The notes below the pieces were generated by a model. The model was not told the DNA's origin, did not search any database, and worked only from the letters and a program-made list of their open reading frames with translations. DNA of 15,574 bases from a virus (lineage: Duplodnaviria; Heunggongvirae; Uroviricota; Caudoviricetes): the IMG/VR virus record IMGVR_UViG_2802429244_000016. One strand, given 5' to 3'. This document shows positions 1,370-15,574 of the stretch, piece after piece. The number at the start of each line of letters is the position of its first letter. The first letter of the stretch is position 1. A program made the position numbers and the translations under genes.

Positions 1370-1445
1370 GCCGATATAGCTCAGTTGGTAGAGCAGCGCA
1401 TTCGTAATGCGAAGGTCGTAGGTTCGACTCCTATTATCGGCACCA
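1370..1445 (+). tRNA. thrW: tRNA-Thr, anticodon CGU (thrW-type), including 3' CCA
   Basis: GCCGATATAGCTCAGTTGGTAGAGCAGCGCATTCGTAATGCGAAGGTCGTAGGTTCGACTCCTATTATCGGCACCA: 7-bp acceptor stem, D-loop AGCTCAGTTGGTAGAGC, anticodon loop TTCGTAA, T-arm GGTTCGACTCC. The proA-thrW order matches the known E. coli island insertion hotspot. Confidence 0.95.
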
Positions 1446-1610: not shown

Positions 1611-2825
1611 GTGAAACTCAATGCCCGTCAAATAGACACAGCTAAGCCAAAAGAGAAGGCTTACAAGCTGGCCGATGGTGGCGGTTTGTATCTCTTGGTA
1701 AAACCTAATGGAGGTAAATACTGGCGACTTAAATATCGTGTAGCTGGTAAAGAGAAGCTATTGGCACTAGGTGTTTATCCTGAGGTTACTCTAGCCGATG
1801 CTCGGGCAAAACGTGAAGATGCGAAAAGAGGTATCGCTGGTGGTATCGATCCGATGGAAGCGAAACGAGAGGAAAAGATTGCCCGGGAAACGCAGTTAAA
1901 CAACACCTTCAAAGATATTGCCCTTGAGTGGCACAGCAGCAAATTAAAAAAATGGTCTGCTGGTTATGCTTCAGACATCCTCGAAGCCTTCAACAAAGAT
2001 GTGTTCCCTTACATTGGCAAAAAACCCATCGCCGAAATCAAACCACTTGAACTTCTGAATGTGCTGCGTCGCATCGAGGGGCGCGGTGCTACAGAAAAAG
2101 CCAAAAAAGTGAGGCAACGGTGCGGGGAAGTTTTCCGCTATGCAATAGTCACTGGTCGCGCAGAGTATAACCCTGCACCAGACCTTACTAGCGCGATGCA
2201 AGGCCATGAATCTAATCATTACCCTTTCCTTACAGCCAAAGAATTACCTGATTTTTTCAAGGCATTGTCCAGTTACTCAGGAAGCGCATTGGTTGTTATG
2301 GCGGCTCGTCTACTGATTATCACCGGCTTGCGGACTGGCGAACTACGTGGCGCATTATGGGATGAAATTGATTTCAACAAGGCTATCTGGGAGATACCCG
2401 CTTCACGTATGAAAATGCGGCGGCCTCATATTGTGCCATTGTCTGAGCAGGCTCTTTCGCTTATTGGGAAGATTAGAGAAATAACAGGCAATTACCCTCT
2501 TATGTTTCCCGGGCGCAATGATCCAAGGAAAACAATGAGCGAGGCCAGCATAAACCAAGTGTTTAAGCGCATTGGCTACGCTGGACGTGTAACTGGTCAT
2601 GGGTTCCGGCACACTATGAGTACGATTTTGCATGAGCAGGGCTATAACACTGCGTGGATAGAAACGCAGCTCGCTCACGTTGATAAGAACTCAATTCGTG
2701 GCACATACAACCATGCGCAATATCTGGATGGAAGGCGGGAGATGCTTCAATGGTATGCCGACTATATGGATTCTCTCGAGCATGGCGGAAATGTGGTGCA
2801 TATGGTGTTTGAAAAACACGCATGA
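1611..2825 (+). CDS. int: Tyrosine site-specific integrase, P4/CP4-57 IntA family (GTG start)
   Basis: 404-aa ORF. N-terminus MKLNARQIDTAKPKEKAYKLADGGGLYLLVKPNGGKYWRLKYR is typical of P4-type integrases; the C-terminal catalytic region has R (LRTGELRGALW), HGFRHT and the nucleophile Y in RGTYNH. Located immediately 3' of a tRNA. Confidence 0.93.
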   Translation: MKLNARQIDTAKPKEKAYKLADGGGLYLLVKPNGGKYWRLKYRVAGKEKLLALGVYPEVTLADARAKREDAKRGIAGGIDPMEAKREEKIARETQLNNTFKDIALEWHSSKLKKWSAGYASDILEAFNKDVFPYIGKKPIAEIKPLELLNVLRRIEGRGATEKAKKVRQRCGEVFRYAIVTGRAEYNPAPDLTSAMQGHESNHYPFLTAKELPDFFKALSSYSGSALVVMAARLLIITGLRTGELRGALWDEIDFNKAIWEIPASRMKMRRPHIVPLSEQALSLIGKIREITGNYPLMFPGRNDPRKTMSEASINQVFKRIGYAGRVTGHGFRHTMSTILHEQGYNTAWIETQLAHVDKNSIRGTYNHAQYLDGRREMLQWYADYMDSLEHGGNVVHMVFEKHA

Positions 2826-3476: not shown

Positions 3477-3680
3477 ATGGCTAATTACAATTCATTAATT
3501 CGTCTCTCTGAAGTTCAAAGGCGAACTGGTTATAGCAAAGCATGGATTTATCGTCTTATTAGTCAGGGGAGGTTCCCTAAACAGGTAAAAATTGGAAGTC
3601 GGGCTATTGCTTTTGTTGAGTCTGAAATAGATGAATGGATTGAGAAGTGTATATTAGAATCTAGAGACGAGGTGGCCTGA
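3477..3680 (+). CDS. alpA: AlpA-family phage/satellite transcriptional regulator (excisionase-like winged-helix DNA binding)
   Basis: 67-aa protein MANYNSLIRLSEVQRRTGYSKAWIYRLISQGRFPKQVKIGSRAIAFVESEIDEWIE, the classic AlpA motif pattern; positioned just downstream of the P4-type integrase. Confidence 0.85.
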   Translation: MANYNSLIRLSEVQRRTGYSKAWIYRLISQGRFPKQVKIGSRAIAFVESEIDEWIEKCILESRDEVA

Positions 3681-4957: not shown

Positions 4958-5132
4958 GCCAACAGGAATACCACAACCTCAAAAACGCTACAAAGATGCC
5001 CACGGAGCACTCGTTACTGTCGAAAGCGTGTCTCACAACCGAGTGACGTTTTATCGCGACGGGTATCAATCGCCATGCGTACAACCGCTGGCGCGCTTCA
5101 TGAAGGAGTTCGCGGAGGTTAACAAATGCTAA
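4950..5132 (+). CDS. Small hypothetical protein (60 aa; DUF4222-like by recollection)
   Basis: ATG at 4950 preceded by GGAGG (4939-4943) and overlapping the upstream stop; MSKPTGIPQPQKRYKDAHGALVTVESVSHNRVTFYRDGYQSPCVQPLARFMKEFAEVNKC. The ORF track's 4863 start lacks an RBS. Confidence 0.55.
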   Translation: MSKPTGIPQPQKRYKDAHGALVTVESVSHNRVTFYRDGYQSPCVQPLARFMKEFAEVNKC

Positions 5133-5563
5133 CCGCCCAGAAGAAGACATTTTCACTGGCTGGCATGTCGCCAAAATCCAGCAATATGACAGCAAAGTCA
5201 GGCATTAATACAGCAGATACAAGCAAAGTTTATCATTTGCTGGTGGTAGGAGCGGATGCCTTAACTATGTCAGAAATCACGGTCGATGGTGTTAGCGTTG
5301 AGAAGGTCAGCGGCTGCGCCAGAGAATTTCTGGTCGTAGATCACCTGTTCTGCTCGTGTAGTGACTCCACAAAAACATTCGTCCACGCGCGTGACGTTAA
5401 CGAAATGAGCGCGATGTACTGTGCTTCTGGTTCTTCCAATAGTGAGTTTTCGGAGTCCATAAAAAAGAGCTTGCCGTTATGCGGCAACACGGTTTATGGT
5501 TATAAGGCACCTCATAAAACGGGTGCCGGGTTTCGCAGCCCGGAAATGTACGAGGCGACACAT

Positions 5564-5584
5564 GACGCGCCGAGCGTCTTTTTT
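5564..5584 (+). terminator. Candidate intrinsic terminator (short GC stem plus T6)
   Basis: GACGC-GCCGA-GCGTC followed by TTTTTT (5579-5584). Stem is only 5 bp, so this is weak. Confidence 0.35.
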
Positions 5585-5594
5585 TGTGCCGTTA

Positions 5595-5632
5595 GCCAGA
5601 CTCACACTTTTTTCAGTGATGTGGTTATAATC
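5595..5632 (+). promoter_or_regulatory. Candidate sigma70 promoter for the small-ORF/primase operon (perfect -10 TATAAT at 5625-5630)
   Basis: GTGATGTGGTTATAATCCGCG; no convincing -35 hexamer (CACACT-like at about 5602-5607). Lies downstream of the candidate terminator and upstream of the structured leader. Confidence 0.35.
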
Positions 5633-5639
5633 CGCGTCG

Positions 5640-5788
5640 CTTGCAAAATTATGGTGGGCTGGACAGGGCAGCCGAAAGGCTGGCCGGTTTCCTTGTACGC
5701 CGGTACTGCGAACTCTGTTCAGTCCACCACCAGCGAGTTTCGCAGCTCCGGTGGTGGGAAGAATTCCCAGTACAAGGAGGCTGCCACA
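5640..5788 (+). ncRNA. Structured 5' leader / candidate regulatory RNA upstream of the primase operon (possible P4 CI-RNA-like immunity element)
   Basis: GNRA hairpin CAGCC-GAAA-GGCTG (5668-5681); 8-bp stem CCACCACC (5723-5730) / GGTGGTGG (5749-5756) presenting loop TTTCGCAG; single-stranded CTGCGAA (5706-5712) complementary to that loop; an upstream hairpin CCGGG-TTTCGCAG-CCCGG (5526-5543) presents the same loop sequence. Confidence 0.4.
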
Positions 5789-5982
5789 TGCTGGCTACTA
5801 CCCCTACCCAAAAACCGCAATTTATCTGGATTATCGCCGCAGTTCGCCGCGATTGCCAGACAATTACCGCCAAAATTCATCATATTGCTGCCGAGTCTGA
5901 ACGCGATGCTCGCCGTTCTCTGGTGCGCGATCACGTCTGCTTTTTTGCTGGTCGTATCCGCATGGAGGTGGCACATGATTAA
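5789..5982 (+). CDS. Hypothetical small protein (64 aa), first gene of the coupled operon
   Basis: Strong RBS AGGAGG (5775-5780) 8 nt before the ATG at 5789; MLATTPTQKPQFIWIIAAVRRDCQTITAKIHHIAAESERDARRSLVRDHVCFFAGRIRMEVAHD. Confidence 0.55.
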
Positions 5983-6193
5983 AACCTACGATGTGCATAT
6001 GGATCCCCTCGAACGCACAAGCCAGATCATCACACTGACAGAGGTGATTAATGACATTCTGGTGAGCAACTCTCCCTCACGAGACGAAAAACTGAAGGCG
6101 TTACTCGCGATATTGGATCTCGCCGTTCGTGACGTTCATTTCCTGCTGGAAGGTGGACAAATGCCATGCAAAACGGGGGCAACCAATGAATAA
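5975..6193 (+). CDS. Hypothetical small protein (72 aa)
   Basis: ATG at 5975 preceded by GGAGG (5964-5968) and overlapping the upstream stop; MIKTYDVHMDPLERTSQIITLTEVINDILVS... The ORF track shows this frame open from 5126, but the upstream part lacks a start context. Confidence 0.5.
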   Translation: MIKTYDVHMDPLERTSQIITLTEVINDILVSNSPSRDEKLKALLAILDLAVRDVHFLLEGGQMPCKTGATNE

Positions 6194-8169: not shown

Positions 8170-10912
8170 TCTTATCCGTCAGGTTATCAGTGCGTCTGAA
8201 AACAACTGGCCTCATGTGCTGGGCTGCCTGAACATAAATGTCCCTGACTCTCCGCGCCGTCATGCTCCCTGCCCTGCATGTGGGGGCAAAGATCGATTCC
8301 GGTTCGATGACAACGGGCGCGGTAGCTTCATCTGTAATCAGTGCGGCGCTGGTGATGGGCTGGATTTAATTAAACGCGTAAATAACTGCGACACAACAGA
8401 GGCGGCGCTTCTTGCCGCTGATGTTCTGGGTATTGATTACCGGACAACGGAAACACCAGAAGCCACCAGCCAGAAACGGGAACAACAGGAAACCGAGCGC
8501 CAGCGACGCGAACAGGAGCGCCTGAAAAGGGCAGAGAAGGACGAACAACAAAGACGGGATACGTTTTCCCGTCAGTTTGATGACATGCGCAGAAAGGCTG
8601 TAAACGGCAAATCTGATTATCTGGTTGCGAAAGGGGTAGGTGATTTTACATTCCCCGTGTTGCCCGATGGATCTCTGTTGCTGGCGCTGGTGGATAAATC
8701 CGGCGCAGTAACAGCAGCACAGACTATTACCTCACATGGTGAAAAAAGACTCCTGACAGGTTCAGCAAAGCGAGGGGCATATCACGCCATAAACGCACCA
8801 GAAACAACACAGAGCATCTTAATCGCAGAAGGGCTGGCAACGGCATTATCTGCCCATTTAATTCGTCCAGAGGCGCTGACAGTGGCGGCGATTGATGCCG
8901 GGAACCTGTTATATGTCGCCCAGGTACTGCGGGATAAATTTCCTTCAGCACAAATCATCATTGCTGCGGATAACGACCACAGCGAAGGAAGACAAAACAC
9001 GGGGAGAATAGCAGCAGAAAAGGCAGCTTTATCTGTTTCTGGATGGGTGGCATTACCCCCGACAGATCACAAAGCAGACTGGAATGATTACCACCAAAAA
9101 CACGGCATTAAATGCGCCACAGAAGCGTTCAATAAGTCAATGTACCAACCACAGGGTAATGGCGTGAAACAGGAGCCACAGACCATTGAGGGAAGCGATT
9201 TTAAGGTTATGGATACCGACCCACTGAAACCAAGAATAGAAAGCCGCGAGGATGGTATTTATTGGGTATCTCCGAGAGCTGACAGCCAGAGTGGAGAAAT
9301 CATCAATAACGAAAGCTGGTTATGTTCTCCGTTAAGCGTTATCGGTACTGGCAGAGACGATAAAGACCAGTATCTCATTCTTCGCTGGCTGTCGTTTGGT
9401 TCTGAAACGCCGACAACCGCTGCCATTCCACTGGCTGATATTGGTGAACGTGAAGGATGGCGCACACTTAAAGCTGGTGGGGTAAATGTCACGACCAAAA
9501 GCAGCCTCAGAGCAATACTGGCAGACTGGCTACAACGCAGTGGCTCTCGTGAATTGTGGCGTGTTGCTCATGCCACTGGCTGGCAATGCGGAGCGTACAT
9601 CATGCCTGATGGGGAAATCATCGGAACACCTGAAAATCCTGTGCTGTTCAGCGGGAGAAGCTCAGCCGCAGCCGGATATACCGTCTCAGGGAGCGCGAAA
9701 AGCTGGCGTGATAACGTGGCGCGTCTGGCCTTTGGTAACTATTCAATGATGACCGGGATCGGCGCAGCACTGGCAGCGCCATTGATTGGGCTGGTGGGCG
9801 CTGACGGGTTCGGCATTCATTTCTATGAGCAGTCGAGCGCAGGTAAGACCACCACGGCAAACGTGGCGAGCAGCTTATACGGCAACCCTGATTTACTGCG
9901 GCTGACGTGGTACGGAACCGCGCTGGGGCTGGCAAATGAAGCCGCCGCCCACAATGACGGACTAATGCCGCTTGATGAAGTTGGTCAGGGCGCTGATCCT
10001 GTCAGTGTTTCACAGTCTGCCTATGCGTTATTTAACGGTGTAGGGAAACTGCAAGGTGCTAAAGATGGTGGAAACCGGGATCTAAAACGCTGGCGTACAG
10101 TGGCAATCAGCACCGGAGAAATGGATTTAGAAACATTTATCGCTACTTCCGGGCGAAAAACCAAAGCCGGGCAACTGGTGCGACTGCTGAATATTCCGTT
10201 GAGTAAAGCAGTACGCTTTCACGATTACCAGAACGGAAAACAGCACGCAGACGCACTGAAAGACGCTTACCAGCATCACCACGGCGCAGCCGGGCGTGAG
10301 TGGATTAAATGGCTGGCAGACCACCAGCAACAGGCTATTAAAACTGTTCGTGACTGCGAAAGCAGATGGAGAAGCCTGATTCCATCCGATTATGGTGAGC
10401 AGGTTCACCGTGTAGCCGCGCGATTTGCCATTCTGGAGGCCGCATTGCTGTTAGGCGAGGTTGTAACAGGCTGGGATGCTCAGACATGCCGTGATGCGAT
10501 ACAGCACAGCTATAACGCATGGTTGCGCGAGTTCGGCACAGGTAACAAAGAACATCAGCAGATTATTGAACAAACGGAGGCATTTCTTAATGCCTATGGG
10601 CTTAGCCGTTTTGCACCATTTCCATACAGCCCGGCAGATTTGCCAATCAAAGATTTAGCCGGATACCGTCAGCGTGGAGAACATGACGAAAGCCCAATGA
10701 TTTTCTACACATTCCCGGCCACATTTGAAAAGGAGATCGCATGTGGTTTCAACGCAAAACAGTTTGCTGAAGTGTTGAAAAAAGCCGGGATGCTAACCCC
10801 ACCAAACAGCGGTCGTGGATACCAAAGAAAATCACCACGTATTCAGGGACGACAAATAAACGTTTATGTACTCAATTACCAGCCAGGAGATTACAACTCA
10901 TCTGAAGAATGA
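8153..10912 (+). CDS. Bifunctional DNA primase/helicase, P4 alpha-like (zinc-ribbon + TOPRIM primase N-terminus, P-loop NTPase C-terminus); functionally the pri-rep of a satellite
   Basis: 919 aa. Cys4 zinc ribbon CPACGGKDRFRFDDNGRGSFICNQCG; TOPRIM-like IAEGLATALS and IIIAADNDHSEGRQNTG; Walker A FYEQSSAGKTT. Start is GTG 8153 or ATG 8156, overlapping the upstream gene. Confidence 0.9.
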   Translation: MMRNIDLIRQVISASENNWPHVLGCLNINVPDSPRRHAPCPACGGKDRFRFDDNGRGSFICNQCGAGDGLDLIKRVNNCDTTEAALLAADVLGIDYRTTETPEATSQKREQQETERQRREQERLKRAEKDEQQRRDTFSRQFDDMRRKAVNGKSDYLVAKGVGDFTFPVLPDGSLLLALVDKSGAVTAAQTITSHGEKRLLTGSAKRGAYHAINAPETTQSILIAEGLATALSAHLIRPEALTVAAIDAGNLLYVAQVLRDKFPSAQIIIAADNDHSEGRQNTGRIAAEKAALSVSGWVALPPTDHKADWNDYHQKHGIKCATEAFNKSMYQPQGNGVKQEPQTIEGSDFKVMDTDPLKPRIESREDGIYWVSPRADSQSGEIINNESWLCSPLSVIGTGRDDKDQYLILRWLSFGSETPTTAAIPLADIGEREGWRTLKAGGVNVTTKSSLRAILADWLQRSGSRELWRVAHATGWQCGAYIMPDGEIIGTPENPVLFSGRSSAAAGYTVSGSAKSWRDNVARLAFGNYSMMTGIGAALAAPLIGLVGADGFGIHFYEQSSAGKTTTANVASSLYGNPDLLRLTWYGTALGLANEAAAHNDGLMPLDEVGQGADPVSVSQSAYALFNGVGKLQGAKDGGNRDLKRWRTVAISTGEMDLETFIATSGRKTKAGQLVRLLNIPLSKAVRFHDYQNGKQHADALKDAYQHHHGAAGREWIKWLADHQQQAIKTVRDCESRWRSLIPSDYGEQVHRVAARFAILEAALLLGEVVTGWDAQTCRDAIQHSYNAWLREFGTGNKEHQQIIEQTEAFLNAYGLSRFAPFPYSPADLPIKDLAGYRQRGEHDESPMIFYTFPATFEKEIACGFNAKQFAEVLKKAGMLTPPNSGRGYQRKSPRIQGRQINVYVLNYQPGDYNSSEE

Positions 10913-10938
10913 GCTTCTTCATGTGCGTAGAAAAGGTG

Positions 10939-11048
10939 TTGGTTCAGTTGGTTCAGTTGGCTCAATTTGTAAAGAGTATTGTTTTATAAGGATTTTATTC
11001 TTTTTGTTGAACCAACACTGAACCAACAACACGGTATTTTGAACCAAC
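10939..11048 (+). repeat. Iteron cluster A (ori-like): 3 tandem GTTGGTTCA, AT-rich spacer, 3 inverted TGAACCAAC
   Basis: GTTGGTTCA at 10939-10947 and 10948-10956, GTTGGCTCA at 10957-10965; AT-rich spacer; TGAACCAAC at 11008-11016, 11019-11027 and 11040-11048. Immediately 3' of the primase gene. Confidence 0.7.
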
Positions 11049-11098
11049 ACAATGTGACTGAATTGATGCGCACAACACCTGGCTGGCATCAGAGAGTG

Positions 11099-11174
11099 TT
11101 TTACGAGACTTTCGTAAAATCCTGTGTACAAGGGCGTGGCGTTTTTGAAGGATAAACCTACGAAATTTTCGTAG
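11099..11174 (+). promoter_or_regulatory. Two dyad-symmetric operator-like sites with shared core TACGA-N5-TCGTA
   Basis: TTTTACGA-GACTT-TCGTAAAA (11099-11119) and the perfect 17-bp palindrome CTACGAAATTTTCGTAG (11158-11174), centres about 57 bp apart. Confidence 0.5.
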
Positions 11175-11370
11175 TTCAAAAAATAGTCTCTGAGATGTTG
11201 TTATGCCTGTTCAGCAAACCATCTGCGTAGCTGATCGCGAATCAAATTACCAATGGAGCCAGAAGCAAGGGCAGAACTGGAAATCGCCTGCCGTGTAGAG
11301 TAATGCGACACCATAAATATAGTTTTCAGAGTCCATAGAAACCTGTCAAAACCTGACATACAGAACGATG

Positions 11371-11399
11371 CCACCAGATACTGAATGGTGGAATTTTTG
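11371..11399 (+). terminator. Weak candidate intrinsic terminator
   Basis: CCACCA-GATACTGAA-TGGTGG followed by AATTTTTGT; 6-bp stem, so marginal. Confidence 0.25.
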
Positions 11400-11493
11400 T
11401 GCTATTTGTTTCATATTTTGCAATAACAATGATGAGTGATGCGATTTATGAAACTATAATAACTGTTGTTTTATACAGATCTAAGGGGGCGTT

Positions 11494-11673
11494 ATGGCTA
11501 TTTCAGTAAAGCCAGTATTGATAAGTGAGAAGCAAATGGAAGCGATAAAGAAAATTCAGGAAGAGCAGCGTAAAAAATCAGAGGTAGGAGTTGCGCCAAC
11601 GATCCATGAAATTGCTCGGGGATTAATGGATAAGGCGCTGACAATACACGCAAAAATGAAGGTGTCTGCATGA
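11494..11673 (+). CDS. Small hypothetical protein (59 aa), translationally coupled to the 604-aa gene
   Basis: Not in the supplied ORF track (below its length cut-off). RBS AAGGGGG (11482-11488) then ATG at 11494; TATAAT at 11455-11460 upstream; stop TGA overlaps the next ATG (ATGA). MAISVKPVLISEKQMEAIKKIQEEQRKKSEVGVAPTIHEIARGLMDKALTIHAKMKVSA. Confidence 0.5.
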   Translation: MAISVKPVLISEKQMEAIKKIQEEQRKKSEVGVAPTIHEIARGLMDKALTIHAKMKVSA

Positions 11674-13484
11674 TTATCAATGAGTTGGCCTACAAGGTCA
11701 CAATTAAGGCCGATGAATTCCTGAATGGAAAACGGAAAGTAAAAGATGAAGTTAGTAAATTAAACAAAGATCTTTCCAGGGCTGAGAAGGAAAGGTTAAA
11801 GGAACTTGAAAAACAACGGCAGGAAATGGAGAAGTTCAGTAAAAACGCTGTTTCAGCTTTCCGCAACGTGACAACAGCAGCCGCTGGATTTTTGGGAATC
11901 GGCGCTGGGTTGTATGGAATCAAGCAACTTTTTACATCTACCGTCAACGAAATCGTGAGAGCCAGTCAACAGGCCAAGTTTTTCGGTTCTGATGTTAATA
12001 AGATGTTTGGTGTTCAGCGGGGATTTCGTCAGGCTGGTCTTAACGGTGACTCGTTCATTTCATCTTCTGGGAATGCCAGAATGGCTTTGGCAAATATTGC
12101 CGATCCAACTGTTATGGGAGGGCTTACTGGCGCTGCCCAAAATTTGCTGGTTCTTGGCGCTCGCACCGGATTAGATATCAATAAGCTCGGTGACCCAAAC
12201 AAGGCTCTTGCTGAGTTTTCTCGCTATGGCAAGACTCATTCTCAAGAAAACCTGATGCAGGTGATGGCTGCCGCAGGGTTCGATCCGACAGATGCCGCTA
12301 AAATAAAATCAGGGGAACTTAAGCAGCTTGTCGATTCAGAAACAAAGAAATCCCGTATTACCGCACAGCAGGTAAAAGAGCAGGAGAAGGTTGCCGCCAC
12401 TCTTGGTCAACTTGATTCAGAGTTTTCCCGATTAAAGCAAAATTTAGCCATGGCATTTGCTCCTGACGTTATTGACGGAATGAAGGCTTTTGGTTCCTGG
12501 ATTGAGAAACATCATGGCGACATCATTGGCTTTTTCAATGACGCCGGAAATATGACGAAGCAATTCACAAAGGCAGTTGGTGGTGCGGAAGAGGCTCTGA
12601 AACTATTGGCAGCAGCATATGTAGGAAGCAAACTTACAGGCGGCGCCCTTCCTCCATGGTTGGCTGGGTTAATAGCATATGGTTTGTATCTCTACAATGA
12701 CAGGGAAAACATTGAGGGTGCAGCTAAAGGATCGTTTGATTACTCTAAGCGTGAACTTGGAGATACCATGCGCAGCATGGGGTTTGACACCGATTTTGGG
12801 CGTAGGGGAGATGAGATTTATGGCAATAACATTCAGCCAGATATCCCTCTCCCTGACGGAGTAAAGCCAGTAAGCATGGATTCTCTCCTTGACGCCATTC
12901 GTGAGGTGGAATCGAGTGGTGGTAAAAAACTTTATAGCCCGAAAGGTGCTGTTGGTCCGTATCAGTTCATGAAGGATACTGCCATAGCGTACGGGTTAAA
13001 GGTCGGGGATGGGATTGATGAGCGCCTTGATGAGGTGAAATCTCGCGCTGCTGCTGAAAGGTTCATGAGGGATTTGCTAAAGCACTATAAAGGCAATGTT
13101 AACCATGCGCTGATGGCTTACAACTGGGGGATGGGCAATGTAGATAAAAAGTTAAAATACATATCCAGTACCGGGTTTGATTCACCATCATCCAAATACT
13201 GGAACACCTTACCGAAAGAGACGCGAGAATATGTGCCAAAGATTCGCGCAGCTCTTAATGCAAAAGAAAACGAGACGCTGGCTTACTATCAGCAGCAGCA
13301 ACGCATCGCCTCAACACCAAGCCAGACAACATCAAAAATTGACAACAGCCGTAGCAGCAGTACAACTATTGGCACGGTTGTTGTTAACAGTAACCCGACA
13401 ACAGTTGATGCTCTTACCAGAAGTGTCAATCAGCAAGTTAGCCGGGTGTCAACAAACGCGGCATTTTCTAGTGCCGTTAAGTAG
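11670..13484 (+). CDS. Coiled-coil, membrane-associated protein with C-terminal lytic transglycosylase (SLT/lysozyme-like) domain and Q/S/T-rich tail; tape-measure or injection-protein-like architecture
   Basis: 604 aa. N-terminal K/E-rich coiled coil (about aa 20-60); hydrophobic segments AAAGFLGIGAGLYGI and ALPPWLAGLIAYGLYLY; SLT signature about aa 404-490 (nt about 12879-13140): DAIREVESSGG, GAVGPYQFM, ALMAYNWGMGN. Tail YYQQQQRIASTPSQTTSKIDNSRSSSTT. Confidence 0.8.
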   Translation: MIINELAYKVTIKADEFLNGKRKVKDEVSKLNKDLSRAEKERLKELEKQRQEMEKFSKNAVSAFRNVTTAAAGFLGIGAGLYGIKQLFTSTVNEIVRASQQAKFFGSDVNKMFGVQRGFRQAGLNGDSFISSSGNARMALANIADPTVMGGLTGAAQNLLVLGARTGLDINKLGDPNKALAEFSRYGKTHSQENLMQVMAAAGFDPTDAAKIKSGELKQLVDSETKKSRITAQQVKEQEKVAATLGQLDSEFSRLKQNLAMAFAPDVIDGMKAFGSWIEKHHGDIIGFFNDAGNMTKQFTKAVGGAEEALKLLAAAYVGSKLTGGALPPWLAGLIAYGLYLYNDRENIEGAAKGSFDYSKRELGDTMRSMGFDTDFGRRGDEIYGNNIQPDIPLPDGVKPVSMDSLLDAIREVESSGGKKLYSPKGAVGPYQFMKDTAIAYGLKVGDGIDERLDEVKSRAAAERFMRDLLKHYKGNVNHALMAYNWGMGNVDKKLKYISSTGFDSPSSKYWNTLPKETREYVPKIRAALNAKENETLAYYQQQQRIASTPSQTTSKIDNSRSSSTTIGTVVVNSNPTTVDALTRSVNQQVSRVSTNAAFSSAVK

Positions 13485-13509
13485 TCATACTTCTAGTGCT
13501 CGTTGAAAA

Positions 13510-14226
13510 TTATTTGGATAATGAGTTAGCCACTCTAATTACCTTAATTAAGAATGCGTATTCTACTGAGCCTTTCCCATAGGCTCTTTCTGCTATATCT
13601 AAAGCTTTAACAAGAGGTATTCCGTGCTGGTCTTGTGTAATATTGGCAACCATAACACCCTGACATGCTAACATTCCGTCAACCCTCAGTATGGAATAGC
13701 TTGTTGAATCTTTTGGAGCCTCTTGAGATAACTGTTCGCAATGATTTTTTATCGTTAAACCATGTATCTTTTTTTGTGATGCATAAAGCTCCAGTGCTGA
13801 AACCTTTTGCTCAGTTGTAGCATTTGATGGAACCGTGGGGTAAATAACCTGATCTGGATGTTGACTGTAATAATACTCGGTTGCCATCTCAGAAGATGTA
13901 TTAATGACATTAATTTGATAGGCTTTCCTGTCATCATTGAAGCCCCAAACAGATTTAACCTTGGCTATTTTCCACTGATTTATTTCTTTTGCATTTTTAG
14001 CAACAACTGCCGTTCTCATGGCGTCTATGCAGGTAAGATTCACATAAGACCTAACATCTGCAGGTGTTTCCCCAATTTTCGCGAGTTCATCCCCTGATTT
14101 CTCAACAACTTGCTCAGCGTATGAAGAACATTTTTCAATAAGATCTAACCCCGTCACATTTTCAGCATTTACCTTCACAGACAGGAAGATGGAGAACATT
14201 ATTACGAGTGCCGTTATTTTTTTCAT
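13510..14226 (-). CDS. Secreted (Sec signal peptide) hypothetical protein, 238 aa, four Cys; convergent with the SLT-domain gene
   Basis: MKKITALVIMFSIFLSVKVNA followed by ENVTG (predicted cleavage after VNA). Mature part has four Cys, consistent with periplasmic disulfides. Visibly AT-rich compared with the rest of the element. No family recognised. Confidence 0.75.
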   Translation of the reverse strand: MKKITALVIMFSIFLSVKVNAENVTGLDLIEKCSSYAEQVVEKSGDELAKIGETPADVRSYVNLTCIDAMRTAVVAKNAKEINQWKIAKVKSVWGFNDDRKAYQINVINTSSEMATEYYYSQHPDQVIYPTVPSNATTEQKVSALELYASQKKIHGLTIKNHCEQLSQEAPKDSTSYSILRVDGMLACQGVMVANITQDQHGIPLVKALDIAERAYGKGSVEYAFLIKVIRVANSLSK

Positions 14227-14583
14227 CTCGATACCATTGTGTAATTTTGATGACTTTATCTACTAACCTGTTTATCAACATATGATTTACCACAAAACGT
14301 GAGATTTCATAACGCGTCCAGCAGTTGATGTTGCCAATCCTACTACATGATCTGTTAATATTTGTTAATATTCTAAGCCGTTAAGATGATGTACTGATTT
14401 TCTATTTGGCAGCCTGTCAGTCCTCACCCTCAACGACGCAAAAAGCAACTCTGCCGACCACGAATTATCTCATGGATGGTCATATCATACCGGGCACCAC
14501 TAGCATGGAGGCAAATGATAAAACCATATGAGAGCACCAGCCAATCAACAGAAGAAACCTGCACCTCTTCAGATAACCCAGAG

Positions 14584-15027
14584 CTATGACTGTAGAACCA
14601 CCATTATTTTCTCAGTGTTACGTCCTTGTCGTTTCCACGCGCTGTAAATGTCTTTATCCCACGCTTTACCAGCTTTTGTTTGATAGCCTGCTTCATTGAG
14701 CCGTTCAGCTATCACACGCCCATTATCAAATCCCTGTTGGATGGTATCGGCAATGATCTTTATAACTGCCGTTTCGTTATATGGCTTTGGTGGGATGTTC
14801 GGCTTTCCGGCAATAAGCGACGCAGCGGCTTTTTCCATGCGCTCCACCAGCCCAAGCATTCGTGAATCAATAGACTTTTCCGGCTGTCCCAGCTTCATGC
14901 GAATCGCATCAACAAGCCAGGAGGTTTTATCCCCTCCAGAAGCGAGAACAGACCGATTAAACTCATCCTGCAATTCAGATGGGATGCGGAACGCGATCAG
15001 ATTAGATTTGCTCATTGCAAAGACCAT
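14584..15027 (-). CDS. Putative DNA-binding regulator: N-terminal ribbon-helix-helix (CopG/Arc/MetJ-like) plus C-terminal recombinase-type HTH-like motif
   Basis: Either MVFAMSKSNLIAFRIPSELQDEFNRSVLASGGDKTSWLVDAIRMKLG or its internal Met: beta strand IAFRIP followed by two helices fits RHH. C-terminal IAERLNEAGYQTKAGKAWDKDIYSAWKRQG resembles the recombinase-type HTH motif. Neither candidate start has a clear RBS. Confidence 0.6.
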   Translation of the reverse strand: MVFAMSKSNLIAFRIPSELQDEFNRSVLASGGDKTSWLVDAIRMKLGQPEKSIDSRMLGLVERMEKAAASLIAGKPNIPPKPYNETAVIKIIADTIQQGFDNGRVIAERLNEAGYQTKAGKAWDKDIYSAWKRQGRNTEKIMVVLQS

Positions 15028-15128
15028 ATCAGTGAGTAATATCCATACAGTATACCACTGTATAACACTGTTATACGCTCAAATATCAGCCAGAAAATAA
15101 CGGGCCAATCACAAAGCTATCGCTGTGT

Positions 15129-15250
15129 TGTTGGTTCAGAGCTGGGCTGTGTTGGTTCAAAATGAGTTGATGTTGGTTCAATATTTTAGAAAAAACACAA
15201 TAAAAACAACGATCTTTACAAATTGAACCAACTGAACCAACTGAACCAAC
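15129..15250 (+). repeat. Iteron cluster B (crr-like), inverted copy of cluster A
   Basis: GTTGGTTCA at 15129-15137, 15151-15159 and 15172-15180; AT-rich spacer; tandem TGAACCAAC at 15224-15232, 15233-15241 and 15242-15250. Its reverse complement aligns with 10935-11050, including the spacer word CAATTTGTAAAGA. Confidence 0.7.
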
Positions 15251-15286
15251 ACCTTTTTGCTTATCTATATAATCTGAGAGGCAGAA

Positions 15287-15574
15287 ATGATAAGGGACAG
15301 GAAAGCTGAAGAGCTGGAGTCAAAAGGGCTATACCGGAGAGCTGCCGCACGATGGGCAGAAGTCATGATGCTGGCAGATGGCGATAAAGAACGTGAACAT
15401 GCAGCAAACAGACGCTCTGAATGTATCCGTAAGGCGGCACGCCCACCAGCAACTACAGACAGATTCGGAGATTTAAGACAGGCAGTTAAGCGGACTCATT
15501 CGGCTCTTGGTATGGATGAGGAAGCGAGAGGGTACTTCAGGCGTTATCGCGATAAAGATTGCCAGAGACAGTAA
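15287..15574 (+). CDS. PerC-family transcriptional regulator-like protein (95 aa)
   Basis: RBS GAGAGG before the ATG; MIRDRKAEELESKGLYRRAAARWAEVMMLADGDKERE... matches the conserved PerC/Pch N-terminal pattern as I recall it; the stop TAA is the last codon of the window. Confidence 0.65.
   Translation: MIRDRKAEELESKGLYRRAAARWAEVMMLADGDKEREHAANRRSECIRKAARPPATTDRFGDLRQAVKRTHSALGMDEEARGYFRRYRDKDCQRQ

Follow-up and report, generated by a model that had tools for sequence, protein, structure and literature searches.

The stretch of DNA analysed here (IMG/VR virus record IMGVR_UViG_2802429244_000016; 15,574 nucleotides, called the window in what follows) is a phage-inducible chromosomal island (PICI) of the EcCIMP1 type, integrated at tRNA-Thr, and our subject is a pair of repeat clusters downstream of its primase-helicase gene, which are probably the two arms of one replication origin. 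The genes follow one another in the order proA, tRNA-Thr, tyrosine integrase, AlpA, AntA antirepressor, Ash-family protein and small open reading frames (ORFs), and then a 919-aa primase-helicase, cluster A, four ORFs, cluster B and a PerC-family gene (Table 1). The window stops at perC, and the right end of the island lies beyond it. The marks of a Gram-negative PICI were found, namely a rightward int, alpA and pri-rep genes and a specific att site, without a phage structural or lysis set. In E. coli MP1, the P22-like phage Kapi1 induces and transfers the PICI EcCIMP1, whose att core has been reported as TCCTATTATC too (PMC11773190). The integrase, AlpA, AntA, Ash, primase and PerC of the window, their position at tRNA-Thr and the shared att core are the content of that island, and the window therefore belongs to the EcCIMP1 type.

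Both clusters are built from the 9-mer GTTGGTTCA and its complement. Eleven exact copies of this sequence occur in the window, every one of them within the two clusters, and the twelfth copy, GTTGGCTCA at position 10956, carries one mismatch. Simple arithmetic gives about 0.12 exact copies expected by chance in 15.6 kb on both strands; when up to one mismatch was allowed, 15 matches were found against 3.8 ± 2.0 in shuffled sequences, and none of the 200 shuffles reached 15. It is clear that the two inverted clusters described in an earlier note on this DNA are real, although the first 9-mer starts at 10938, not at 10939. The layout given there, three and three 9-mers around an AT-rich spacer in each cluster, was likewise recovered, with the reservation that the third 9-mer of cluster A is imperfect. 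Cluster B was further said to mirror cluster A both in layout and in its spacer; this is true of the overall layout, with a length difference of 10 bp, whereas the spacers are alike only for approximately the first 22 nt beside the tandem triple and then diverge.

The spacers contain 81% AT in both clusters, as compared with 52% for the whole window. The best inverted-repeat arms given by a repeat finder were at 10931–10985 and 15203–15257 (55 nt, 93% complementarity). Cluster A begins 26 bp past the primase stop codon, and the separation between the two clusters, which we call arm A and arm B below, is 4.08 kb. Each arm has three plus three opposed iterons around an AT-rich spacer and is in itself a complete origin module of the PICI/SaPI type; since cluster A alone matches the published layout of such origins, it represents an already known kind of feature. 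The 10-bp difference lies in arm A, where a helical turn that EcCIMP1 has between two inner iterons has been lost. The same loss (11008–11027; a spacing of 11 instead of the 21 in arm A of EcCIMP1, locus L080 in our numbering) was also seen in loci L001 and L002, and the helical phase is kept. No RNA family of Rfam was matched at either arm.

Table 1. Features of the window, with positions counted from its first nucleotide.
Feature	Position	Strand	Remarks
tRNA-Thr (CGT)	1370..1445	+	island integration site
att core TCCTATTATC	1429-1438		inside tRNA-Thr
Tyrosine integrase of the island	1611..2825	+	Pfam Phage_integrase, Arm-DNA-bind_3, Phage_int_M
AlpA-family regulator	3477..3680	+	hallmark of Gram-negative PICIs; Pfam Phage_AlpA, E 7e-20
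Pri-Rep fusion primase-helicase, 919 aa	8153..10912	+	Zn ribbon, Toprim, DUF927 helicase (Pfam)
Cluster A (arm A)	10938-11048		111 bp; iteron start-to-start spacings 9, 9, 52, 11, 21
Arm A outer tandem triple GTTGGTTCA, GTTGGTTCA, GTTGGCTCA	10938..10964	+	9-bp period
Arm A spacer	10965..11007		43 bp, 81% AT; contains core TTGTTTTATAAGGATTTTATT
Arm A inner spaced iterons TGAACCAAC x3	11008..11048	-	starts 11008, 11019, 11040
Centre-motif copy CCTGGCTGGCA	11078..11088	+	just inside arm A
59-aa ORF	11494..11673	+	first inter-arm gene; conserved in related islands
604-aa SLT lytic-transglycosylase ('lytic tail protein')	11670..13484	+	Pfam SLT; phrog_2013
238-aa ORF	13510..14226	-	homologue at the same position in L060
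147-aa ORF	14584..15027	-	starts ~100 bp inside arm B
Centre-motif copy, degenerate, inverted	15087-15099		just inside arm B
Cluster B (arm B)	15130-15250		121 bp; iteron start-to-start spacings 21, 21, 52, 9, 9
Arm B inner spaced iterons GTTGGTTCA x3	15130..15180	+	starts 15130, 15151, 15172; 21-bp period
Arm B spacer	15181..15223		43 bp, 81% AT; without TATAAGG core
Arm B outer tandem triple TGAACCAAC x3	15224..15250	-	
Right-boundary box ACCTTTTTGCTTATCTATATAATCT	15251..15275	+	TTTTGCTTATATATA box; perfect TATAAT at 15268-15273
PerC-family regulator gene	15287..15574	+	Pfam PerC, E 3e-33; start 36 bp past arm B

The window was compared with 77 loci that encode relatives of the primase, one genome per species, and with 61 IMG/VR stretches containing the tandem triple. 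Conservation of the clusters, which the earlier note had left to an alignment of related elements, was found: the pair recurs in E. coli islands, in IMG/VR contigs and in no fewer than eight further genera. The iterons begin 20–50 bp past the primase stop in nearly all of 62 related loci. At least seven iteron classes could be distinguished (GTTGGTTCA, TGTTGTCTC, GTAACCCGT, GTCGGTTCA, TACCCGAC, TAACCCAC, TTATCCCA and others), and the same class was always present in both halves of one origin. The general plan of the first half comprises tandem repeats, an AT-rich spacer, spaced inverted iterons and a short centre, often with the motif TTTTCTGGCTGGCAG; in the second half there are more spaced iterons, a second spacer and tandem repeats in the opposite orientation. 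In many relatives the halves are contiguous and form a single unit of 260–340 bp, with full mirror symmetry in L016, L036, L037, L054, L057 and L064, and in loci of the L004 type the second spacer is GC-rich. The distance between the arms forms a continuum, from about 50 bp (L036) and about 160 bp (L049) through 435 bp with one small ORF (L042, which belongs to a different iteron class from the window) to 0.95–10.4 kb; an automated pass sorted 21 loci as contiguous and 15 as split. Every pair is convergent, with the tandem triples outermost, and the orientation of the enclosed segment is fixed.

The iterons are conserved selectively. Between arm A and arm B of the window, 53 of 54 iteron columns are identical as compared with 37 of 57 non-iteron columns, and the corresponding values for 13 split loci, which belong to E. 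coli and at least eight other genera, were 92% (676/738) and 64% (486/761). In a six-sequence alignment, the invariant columns were almost exclusively iterons. Within E. coli, an arm match was obtained in 568 of 5426 complete genomes, with a median of two places per genome. Islands of this species at two integration sites had inter-arm distances of 1.8, 3.3, 4.1 and 8.4 kb, and EcCIMP1 itself has both arms, 8.4 kb apart. Locus L003 encodes a primase identical to that of the window and carries different cargo.

Some additional loci may be mentioned here. Arm matches of lower identity (60–80%) were given by 194 records, usually at one place per genome, and are consistent with decayed islands. 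One of them, L082 (NZ_AP018802.1), was inspected; it has retained only arm B (9008–9128), perC and a small helix-turn-helix gene, the primase and arm A being gone. In L034 (Yersinia pekkanenii), three copies of the contiguous origin are found within 6 kb, at −4555, +27 and +1208 from the primase stop, and a protein annotated as HNH endonuclease domain protein (P0103) also matches the primase C-terminus; the copies may be tandem or rearranged islands, or there may be an intervening element in the primase gene. In L136, an IMG/VR contig of 12,541 bp from the viral fraction, the arms are 10.4 kb apart, and this contig could be a complete packaged or circular satellite.

The presumed initiator that binds the iterons is the primase-helicase of the island. 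Its N-terminal Zn-ribbon/Toprim domain and P4 alpha are homologous (E 2e-41; 33% of 359 aligned positions identical), and this alignment is confined to residues 8–362. The remainder of the protein is DUF927, whereas P4 alpha has D5_N, DUF5906 and Pox_D5 there. The helicase part matched the PDB entry 8TCH, with the chain name 'Pathogenicity island protein' (E 1e-11), and the SCCmec helicase Cch (5DGK), and it is clear that the protein is homologous to the self-loading helicases of the Rep/Cch type; the NCBIfam model Cch1 also matched, with an E-value of 8e-10 that is below the curated cut-off. The earlier note had called the primase P4-alpha-like, which describes its N-terminal primase domain well but not its helicase and origin-binding part, which is DUF927/Cch/SaPI-Rep-like.

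For residues 700–919, an AlphaFold2 model built on an alignment of 36 homologues had a pLDDT of 86, whereas a single-sequence AlphaFold prediction of the C-terminus reached a pLDDT of only 37. The best fold match of the alignment-based model was the C-terminal region of Cch (5DGK, E 4e-5), and the next was 5VFX, a winged-helix protein solved on oriT DNA (probability 0.99). The C-terminus of the primase thus models as a Cch-like helical bundle followed by a winged-helix-like domain. This region co-varies with the iteron class: the mutual information between residue and iteron class was 0.68 in residues 840–919 as compared with 0.2–0.3 in the helicase core, and among pairs at a matched helicase identity of 0.85 the C-terminal identity was 0.74 within an iteron class and 0.64 between classes. 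In the model proposed for SaPI Rep, the iterons are read by the C-terminal winged helix (PMC9371898), and the covariation observed here fits that model. The primase-helicase has the build of a self-loading helicase of the Rep/Cch type with a C-terminal winged-helix-like domain, and we infer that this domain confers specificity for the iterons.

The two arms are not equal. The arm proximal to the primase nearly always carries the spacer ATTTGTAAAGA...TTGTTTTATAAGGATTTTATT, the core of which, TTGTTTTATAAGGATTTTATT, is conserved irrespective of iteron class and was seen in this arm of most loci; the spacer of arm A is the presumed DNA-unwinding element. Because arm A lies next to the primase gene and contains the conserved core in its spacer, we treat it as the putative core origin. 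In arm B, the invariant parts are the iterons, above all those of the outer triple, together with the adjoining box. The consensus tTTTtgcTTATaTATA.AAAAA of this box (TTTTGCTTATATATA box) was found directly after the distal tandem triple in 33 of 36 loci, contiguous as well as split and in all iteron classes, and in the window its TATAAT sits 17 bp past the arm B triple and 14 bp before the ATG of perC. Since the box after the distal triple is shared, arm B of the window corresponds to the right end of the contiguous origins. The box is a candidate promoter, priming site or unwinding element. Another motif, TTTTCTGGCTGGCAG, stands at the dyad centre of contiguous origins regardless of iteron class (L004, L008, L016, L022, L033, L036, L045 and L047); in the window, one copy of it accompanies each arm on the inner side.

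We regard it as probable that the clusters together make up a single PICI-type origin, as its two arms, and that the primase-helicase of the island binds them. The protein would recognise the 9-mers through its C-terminal winged-helix-like region and assemble on both arms; it would then melt the AT-rich spacer of arm A, load itself and prime synthesis. In the lineage of the window, a module related to helper phages would occupy the dyad centre and hold the arms at their distance of 4.08 kb. Initiation may also take place at arm B; alternatively, arm B may assist arm A from a distance as an auxiliary site, probably by looping, and in the latter case the two arms would resemble the cooperation of crr with ori in P4. 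If the clusters are indeed arms of one origin, then a role of arm B in replication and a mainly regulatory role seem to us about evenly balanced.

Several observations weigh against this interpretation. In 26 loci a second tandem run was undetected in the available flank; some of these loci can be seen to be contiguous although irregular, in others the flank is cut short, and a single-arm state is possible. All split loci except L042 share one iteron class, so that for a distant arm B the covariation is drawn from a single additional class. Conservation within E. coli says little, and a decayed remnant island without primase keeps six of six perfect arm-B iterons. The distal arm keeps only the first part of the spacer, or has an unrelated AT-rich or GC-rich one, and usually it is without the TATAAGG core; the second spacer is GC-rich in many contiguous origins as well, and arm B may not melt at all. 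Finally, the covariation between iterons and the primase C-terminus could partly reflect physical linkage, because arm A adjoins the 3' end of the primase gene.

Some of these observations would suit an arm B that is mainly regulatory, with arm A as the sole origin. The initiator bound to the distal triple would then control the adjoining promoter-like box and hence perC or whichever gene follows, or else arm B would titrate or handcuff the initiator and limit the copy number. The class-independent box after the distal triple, the TATAAT close to perC, the spacer core usually missing from arm B and the GC-rich second spacers all agree with such a function. Auxiliary iteron arrays with negative control, such as incA of P1, are established plasmid biology, and we count them in its favour. 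However, the split loci keep a full module in arm B, including an 81% AT spacer of the same length as in arm A, and an operator needs none of this. Scans with consensus sigma-70 promoters and terminators gave nothing at arm B or perC and weak matches only after arm A. The position of perC varies, too: it follows arm B in E. coli and the contiguous origin in L004, but it follows arm A, not arm B, in L013, L021 and L026. A restraint of the copy number, moreover, would be without obvious use, because satellites replicate explosively after induction. We therefore consider a mainly regulatory arm B unlikely, while noting that such a function can coexist with a role in replication. The drifted spacer of arm B, which has lost the conserved core, and the perfect arm B that survives without primase in the remnant island could alternatively be taken for a relic without function, left by an inverted duplication of the origin. 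The selective identity of the iterons between arms in at least eight genera speaks against a relic, as do the two-arm plan, which recurs through at least seven classes of iteron and in a PICI primase family unrelated to this one, and the almost universal presence of the outer triple and the box, and we hold this explanation to be highly improbable.

Two further explanations go back to the earlier note, which had likened the pair to ori and crr of phage P4 and had offered a mobile or invertible cassette as the alternative. From the comparison with P4, two clusters resembling binding arrays for the neighbouring primase-helicase remain, with cluster A where the origin of a satellite is expected; initiator domains and site geometry are not those of the P4 system. 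A true P4-type pair would mean that both sites are strictly required in cis and held together by an alpha-like protein, and that the element is a relative of P4. The homology of the N-terminal primase domain and the two iteron arrays kilobases apart would be in line with this, and so would the crr repeat, a tight pair plus spaced inverted octamers which lies directly 3' of alpha as arm A does to the primase. The helicase and origin-binding domains of the window protein are, however, DUF927/Cch-like in place of those of P4 alpha. In the P4 record (NC_001609), crr consists of two direct 120-bp repeats directly 3' of alpha and ori is about 4.5 kb off, beyond the alpha operon, whereas the modules of the window are inverted and in many relatives contiguous. 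In addition, Pfam scans detected no genes of the Sid, Delta or Psu type in the window, and the gene order is that of PICIs, so that a P4-type system appears very unlikely. As to the cassette, the arms could be the terminal inverted repeats of a mobile element or the recombination sites of a phase-variable segment, and they are indeed inverted (the 55-nt repeat, plus further matches) and bracket variable content. Inversion, which the note had suggested looking for in related genomes, was not observed: a synthetic junction of the inverted isomer, composed of the primase end, the arm and, in reverse complement, the sequence adjoining arm B on its inner side, was found at ≥80% coverage in 0 of 545 E. 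coli genomes, and the native junction in 363 of 565. All pairs are convergent with their tandem triples outermost. Among the ORFs between the arms, no transposase, invertase or other recombinase and no defence system was detected with Pfam, PHROGs, PADLOC and NCBIfam, and no target-site duplication was visible at the outer ends. Because the arms stand side by side without an insert in many relatives, they belong to the backbone, and in E. coli the variable DNA lies inside the conserved blocks primase–arm A–59-aa ORF and 147-aa ORF–arm B–PerC, not at the arms. On these grounds a transposon or insertion sequence and an invertible switch were both rejected, and we find a cassette of either kind hardly credible.

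Of the genes between the arms, that for the SLT protein has a counterpart, about 98% identical in nucleotides, in a contractile-tail E. coli prophage (L084 7001–8815), where the counterpart occupies the tape-measure position; the homology runs from the start codon of the ORF to about 10 nt short of its stop. In EcCIMP1 this slot is filled by P22-type ejection genes, and it seems that the slot holds alternative DNA-delivery genes of the helper type, which the satellite swaps. Acquisition of the SLT gene through shared flanking genes was considered and rejected, as the small ORF in front of the prophage SLT gene shows no homology to the 59-aa ORF. The N-terminus of the 147-aa product, read by eye, looks like a ribbon-helix-helix, and homologues of this ORF were found beside the distal arm in loci of Rosenbergiella, Chimaeribacter, Pantoea, Cedecea and Serratia. 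Upstream of the 147-aa ORF there are two overlapping palindromes, ACAGT-ATACC-ACTGT (15047–15061) and GTATAAC-ACT-GTTATAC (15060–15076). At the other end, a 445-bp non-coding stretch after arm A is conserved across hundreds of E. coli genomes, and two hairpin-forming palindromes with a common ACGA...TCGT, TTTTACGA-GACTT-TCGTAAAA and CTACGAAA-T-TTTCGTAG, are located at 11099–11174.

Two RNA features were noticed in the left part of the island. Rfam gave gathering-level matches on the + strand to isrK (5507–5584, 69 bits) and to the C4 antisense RNA (5647–5734, 81 bits), both of which fall within the Ash-family ORF at 5126–6193, just downstream of the AntA antirepressor gene. This suggests that the island carries a c4-ant immunity RNA module in the style of P1 and P7, and the call of a 355-aa Ash-family ORF may be partly spurious.

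A more far-reaching interpretation, which we put forward tentatively and ourselves find rather doubtful, is that the dyad centre is a dedicated slot for DNA-delivery genes matched to the helper, either P22-type ejection genes or an SLT tape-measure-like gene, and that the arms loop over 0.2–10 kb as an origin and its distant enhancer. If this were true, it would be a second, independently evolved system resembling ori and crr, based on an MCM/Cch-like self-loading helicase and not on P4 alpha, and origin firing would be coupled to the enclosed module and to the gene that follows the boundary box, through their expression or their dosage. PICIs are widespread vehicles of virulence and anti-phage genes, and approximately one in ten complete E. 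coli genomes matches this arm. If the two arms tolerate kilobases of insert, their position marks where this satellite family stores its helper-specific genes. The two-arm origin, if it holds, would also provide a search signature for EcCIMP1-type islands, which the satellite classifiers now in use rate as incomplete (PMC11773190): the primase stop, a tandem triple, an AT spacer, a distant mirrored triple and the TTTTGCTTATATATA box. In the same case, it would offer a tractable system for studying how self-loading helicases use paired or distant binding arrays, with the EcCIMP1/Kapi1 pair at hand. The general picture of satellite replication is left unchanged.

The type of origin and the family of elements have already been published, while the mirrored second module, the boundary box and the separation of the modules by up to 10 kb of genes appear to be undescribed; no description of a two-arm or split PICI origin was found in the searchable literature, which lacks most subscription journals. 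With P4, the island shares two arrays of the same short repeat a few kilobases apart, one of them directly 3' of the gene of a Zn-ribbon/Toprim primase-helicase, and arm A is the positional counterpart of crr. It differs from P4 in the type of initiator and in the geometry of the sites, since both modules of the window lie downstream of the primase whereas P4 ori is upstream of the alpha operon. A cis requirement for both sites has been shown for P4 only, and the resemblance to P4 ori and crr is functional at most.

EcCIMP1 resembles the window in content, with the integration site, att core, gene order, primase, an ejection-type module downstream of the primase, PerC and both arms in common; its inter-arm module of 8.4 kb carries P22-like ejection genes, whereas the 4.1 kb of the window carry the SLT gene. 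The paper describing EcCIMP1 makes no mention of iterons or of an origin (PMC11773190). Variable accessory genes just downstream of pri are known from other PICIs, and the accessible portion of the source (PMC11364771) does not describe this region as lying between two halves of an origin. The origin of EcCICFT073 (L083) is contiguous, about 235 bp in length, with mirrored tandem repeats 190 bp apart. Its first spacer is AT-rich and its second GC-rich, as in the L004-type relatives of the window; it differs in having a primase of another family, the iteron CTGTCTACC and unsplit halves. The function of this origin has been validated by plasmid replication (PMC6092414), and binding of the initiator to the iterons and autonomous replication from pri-ori have been shown for EcCICFT073 and the SaPIs (PMC6092414, PMC9371898).

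In published PICIs and SaPIs, the origin lies directly 3' of rep and consists of opposed iteron sets around an AT-rich region (Fillol-Salom et al. 2018, PMC6092414; Qiao et al. 2022, PMC9371898). The family of the window agrees with them in that the origin adjoins the 3' end of the initiator gene, in that the initiator joins a primase to a Cch/SaPI-Rep-like helicase and has a DNA-binding region at its C-terminus, and in that the iteron sequence co-varies with the C-terminus of the initiator. It differs in the number and arrangement of the modules: whereas the published origins have one, there are two mirror-image modules in this family, which may be separated by kilobases of DNA with genes, and the distal module carries the extra box.

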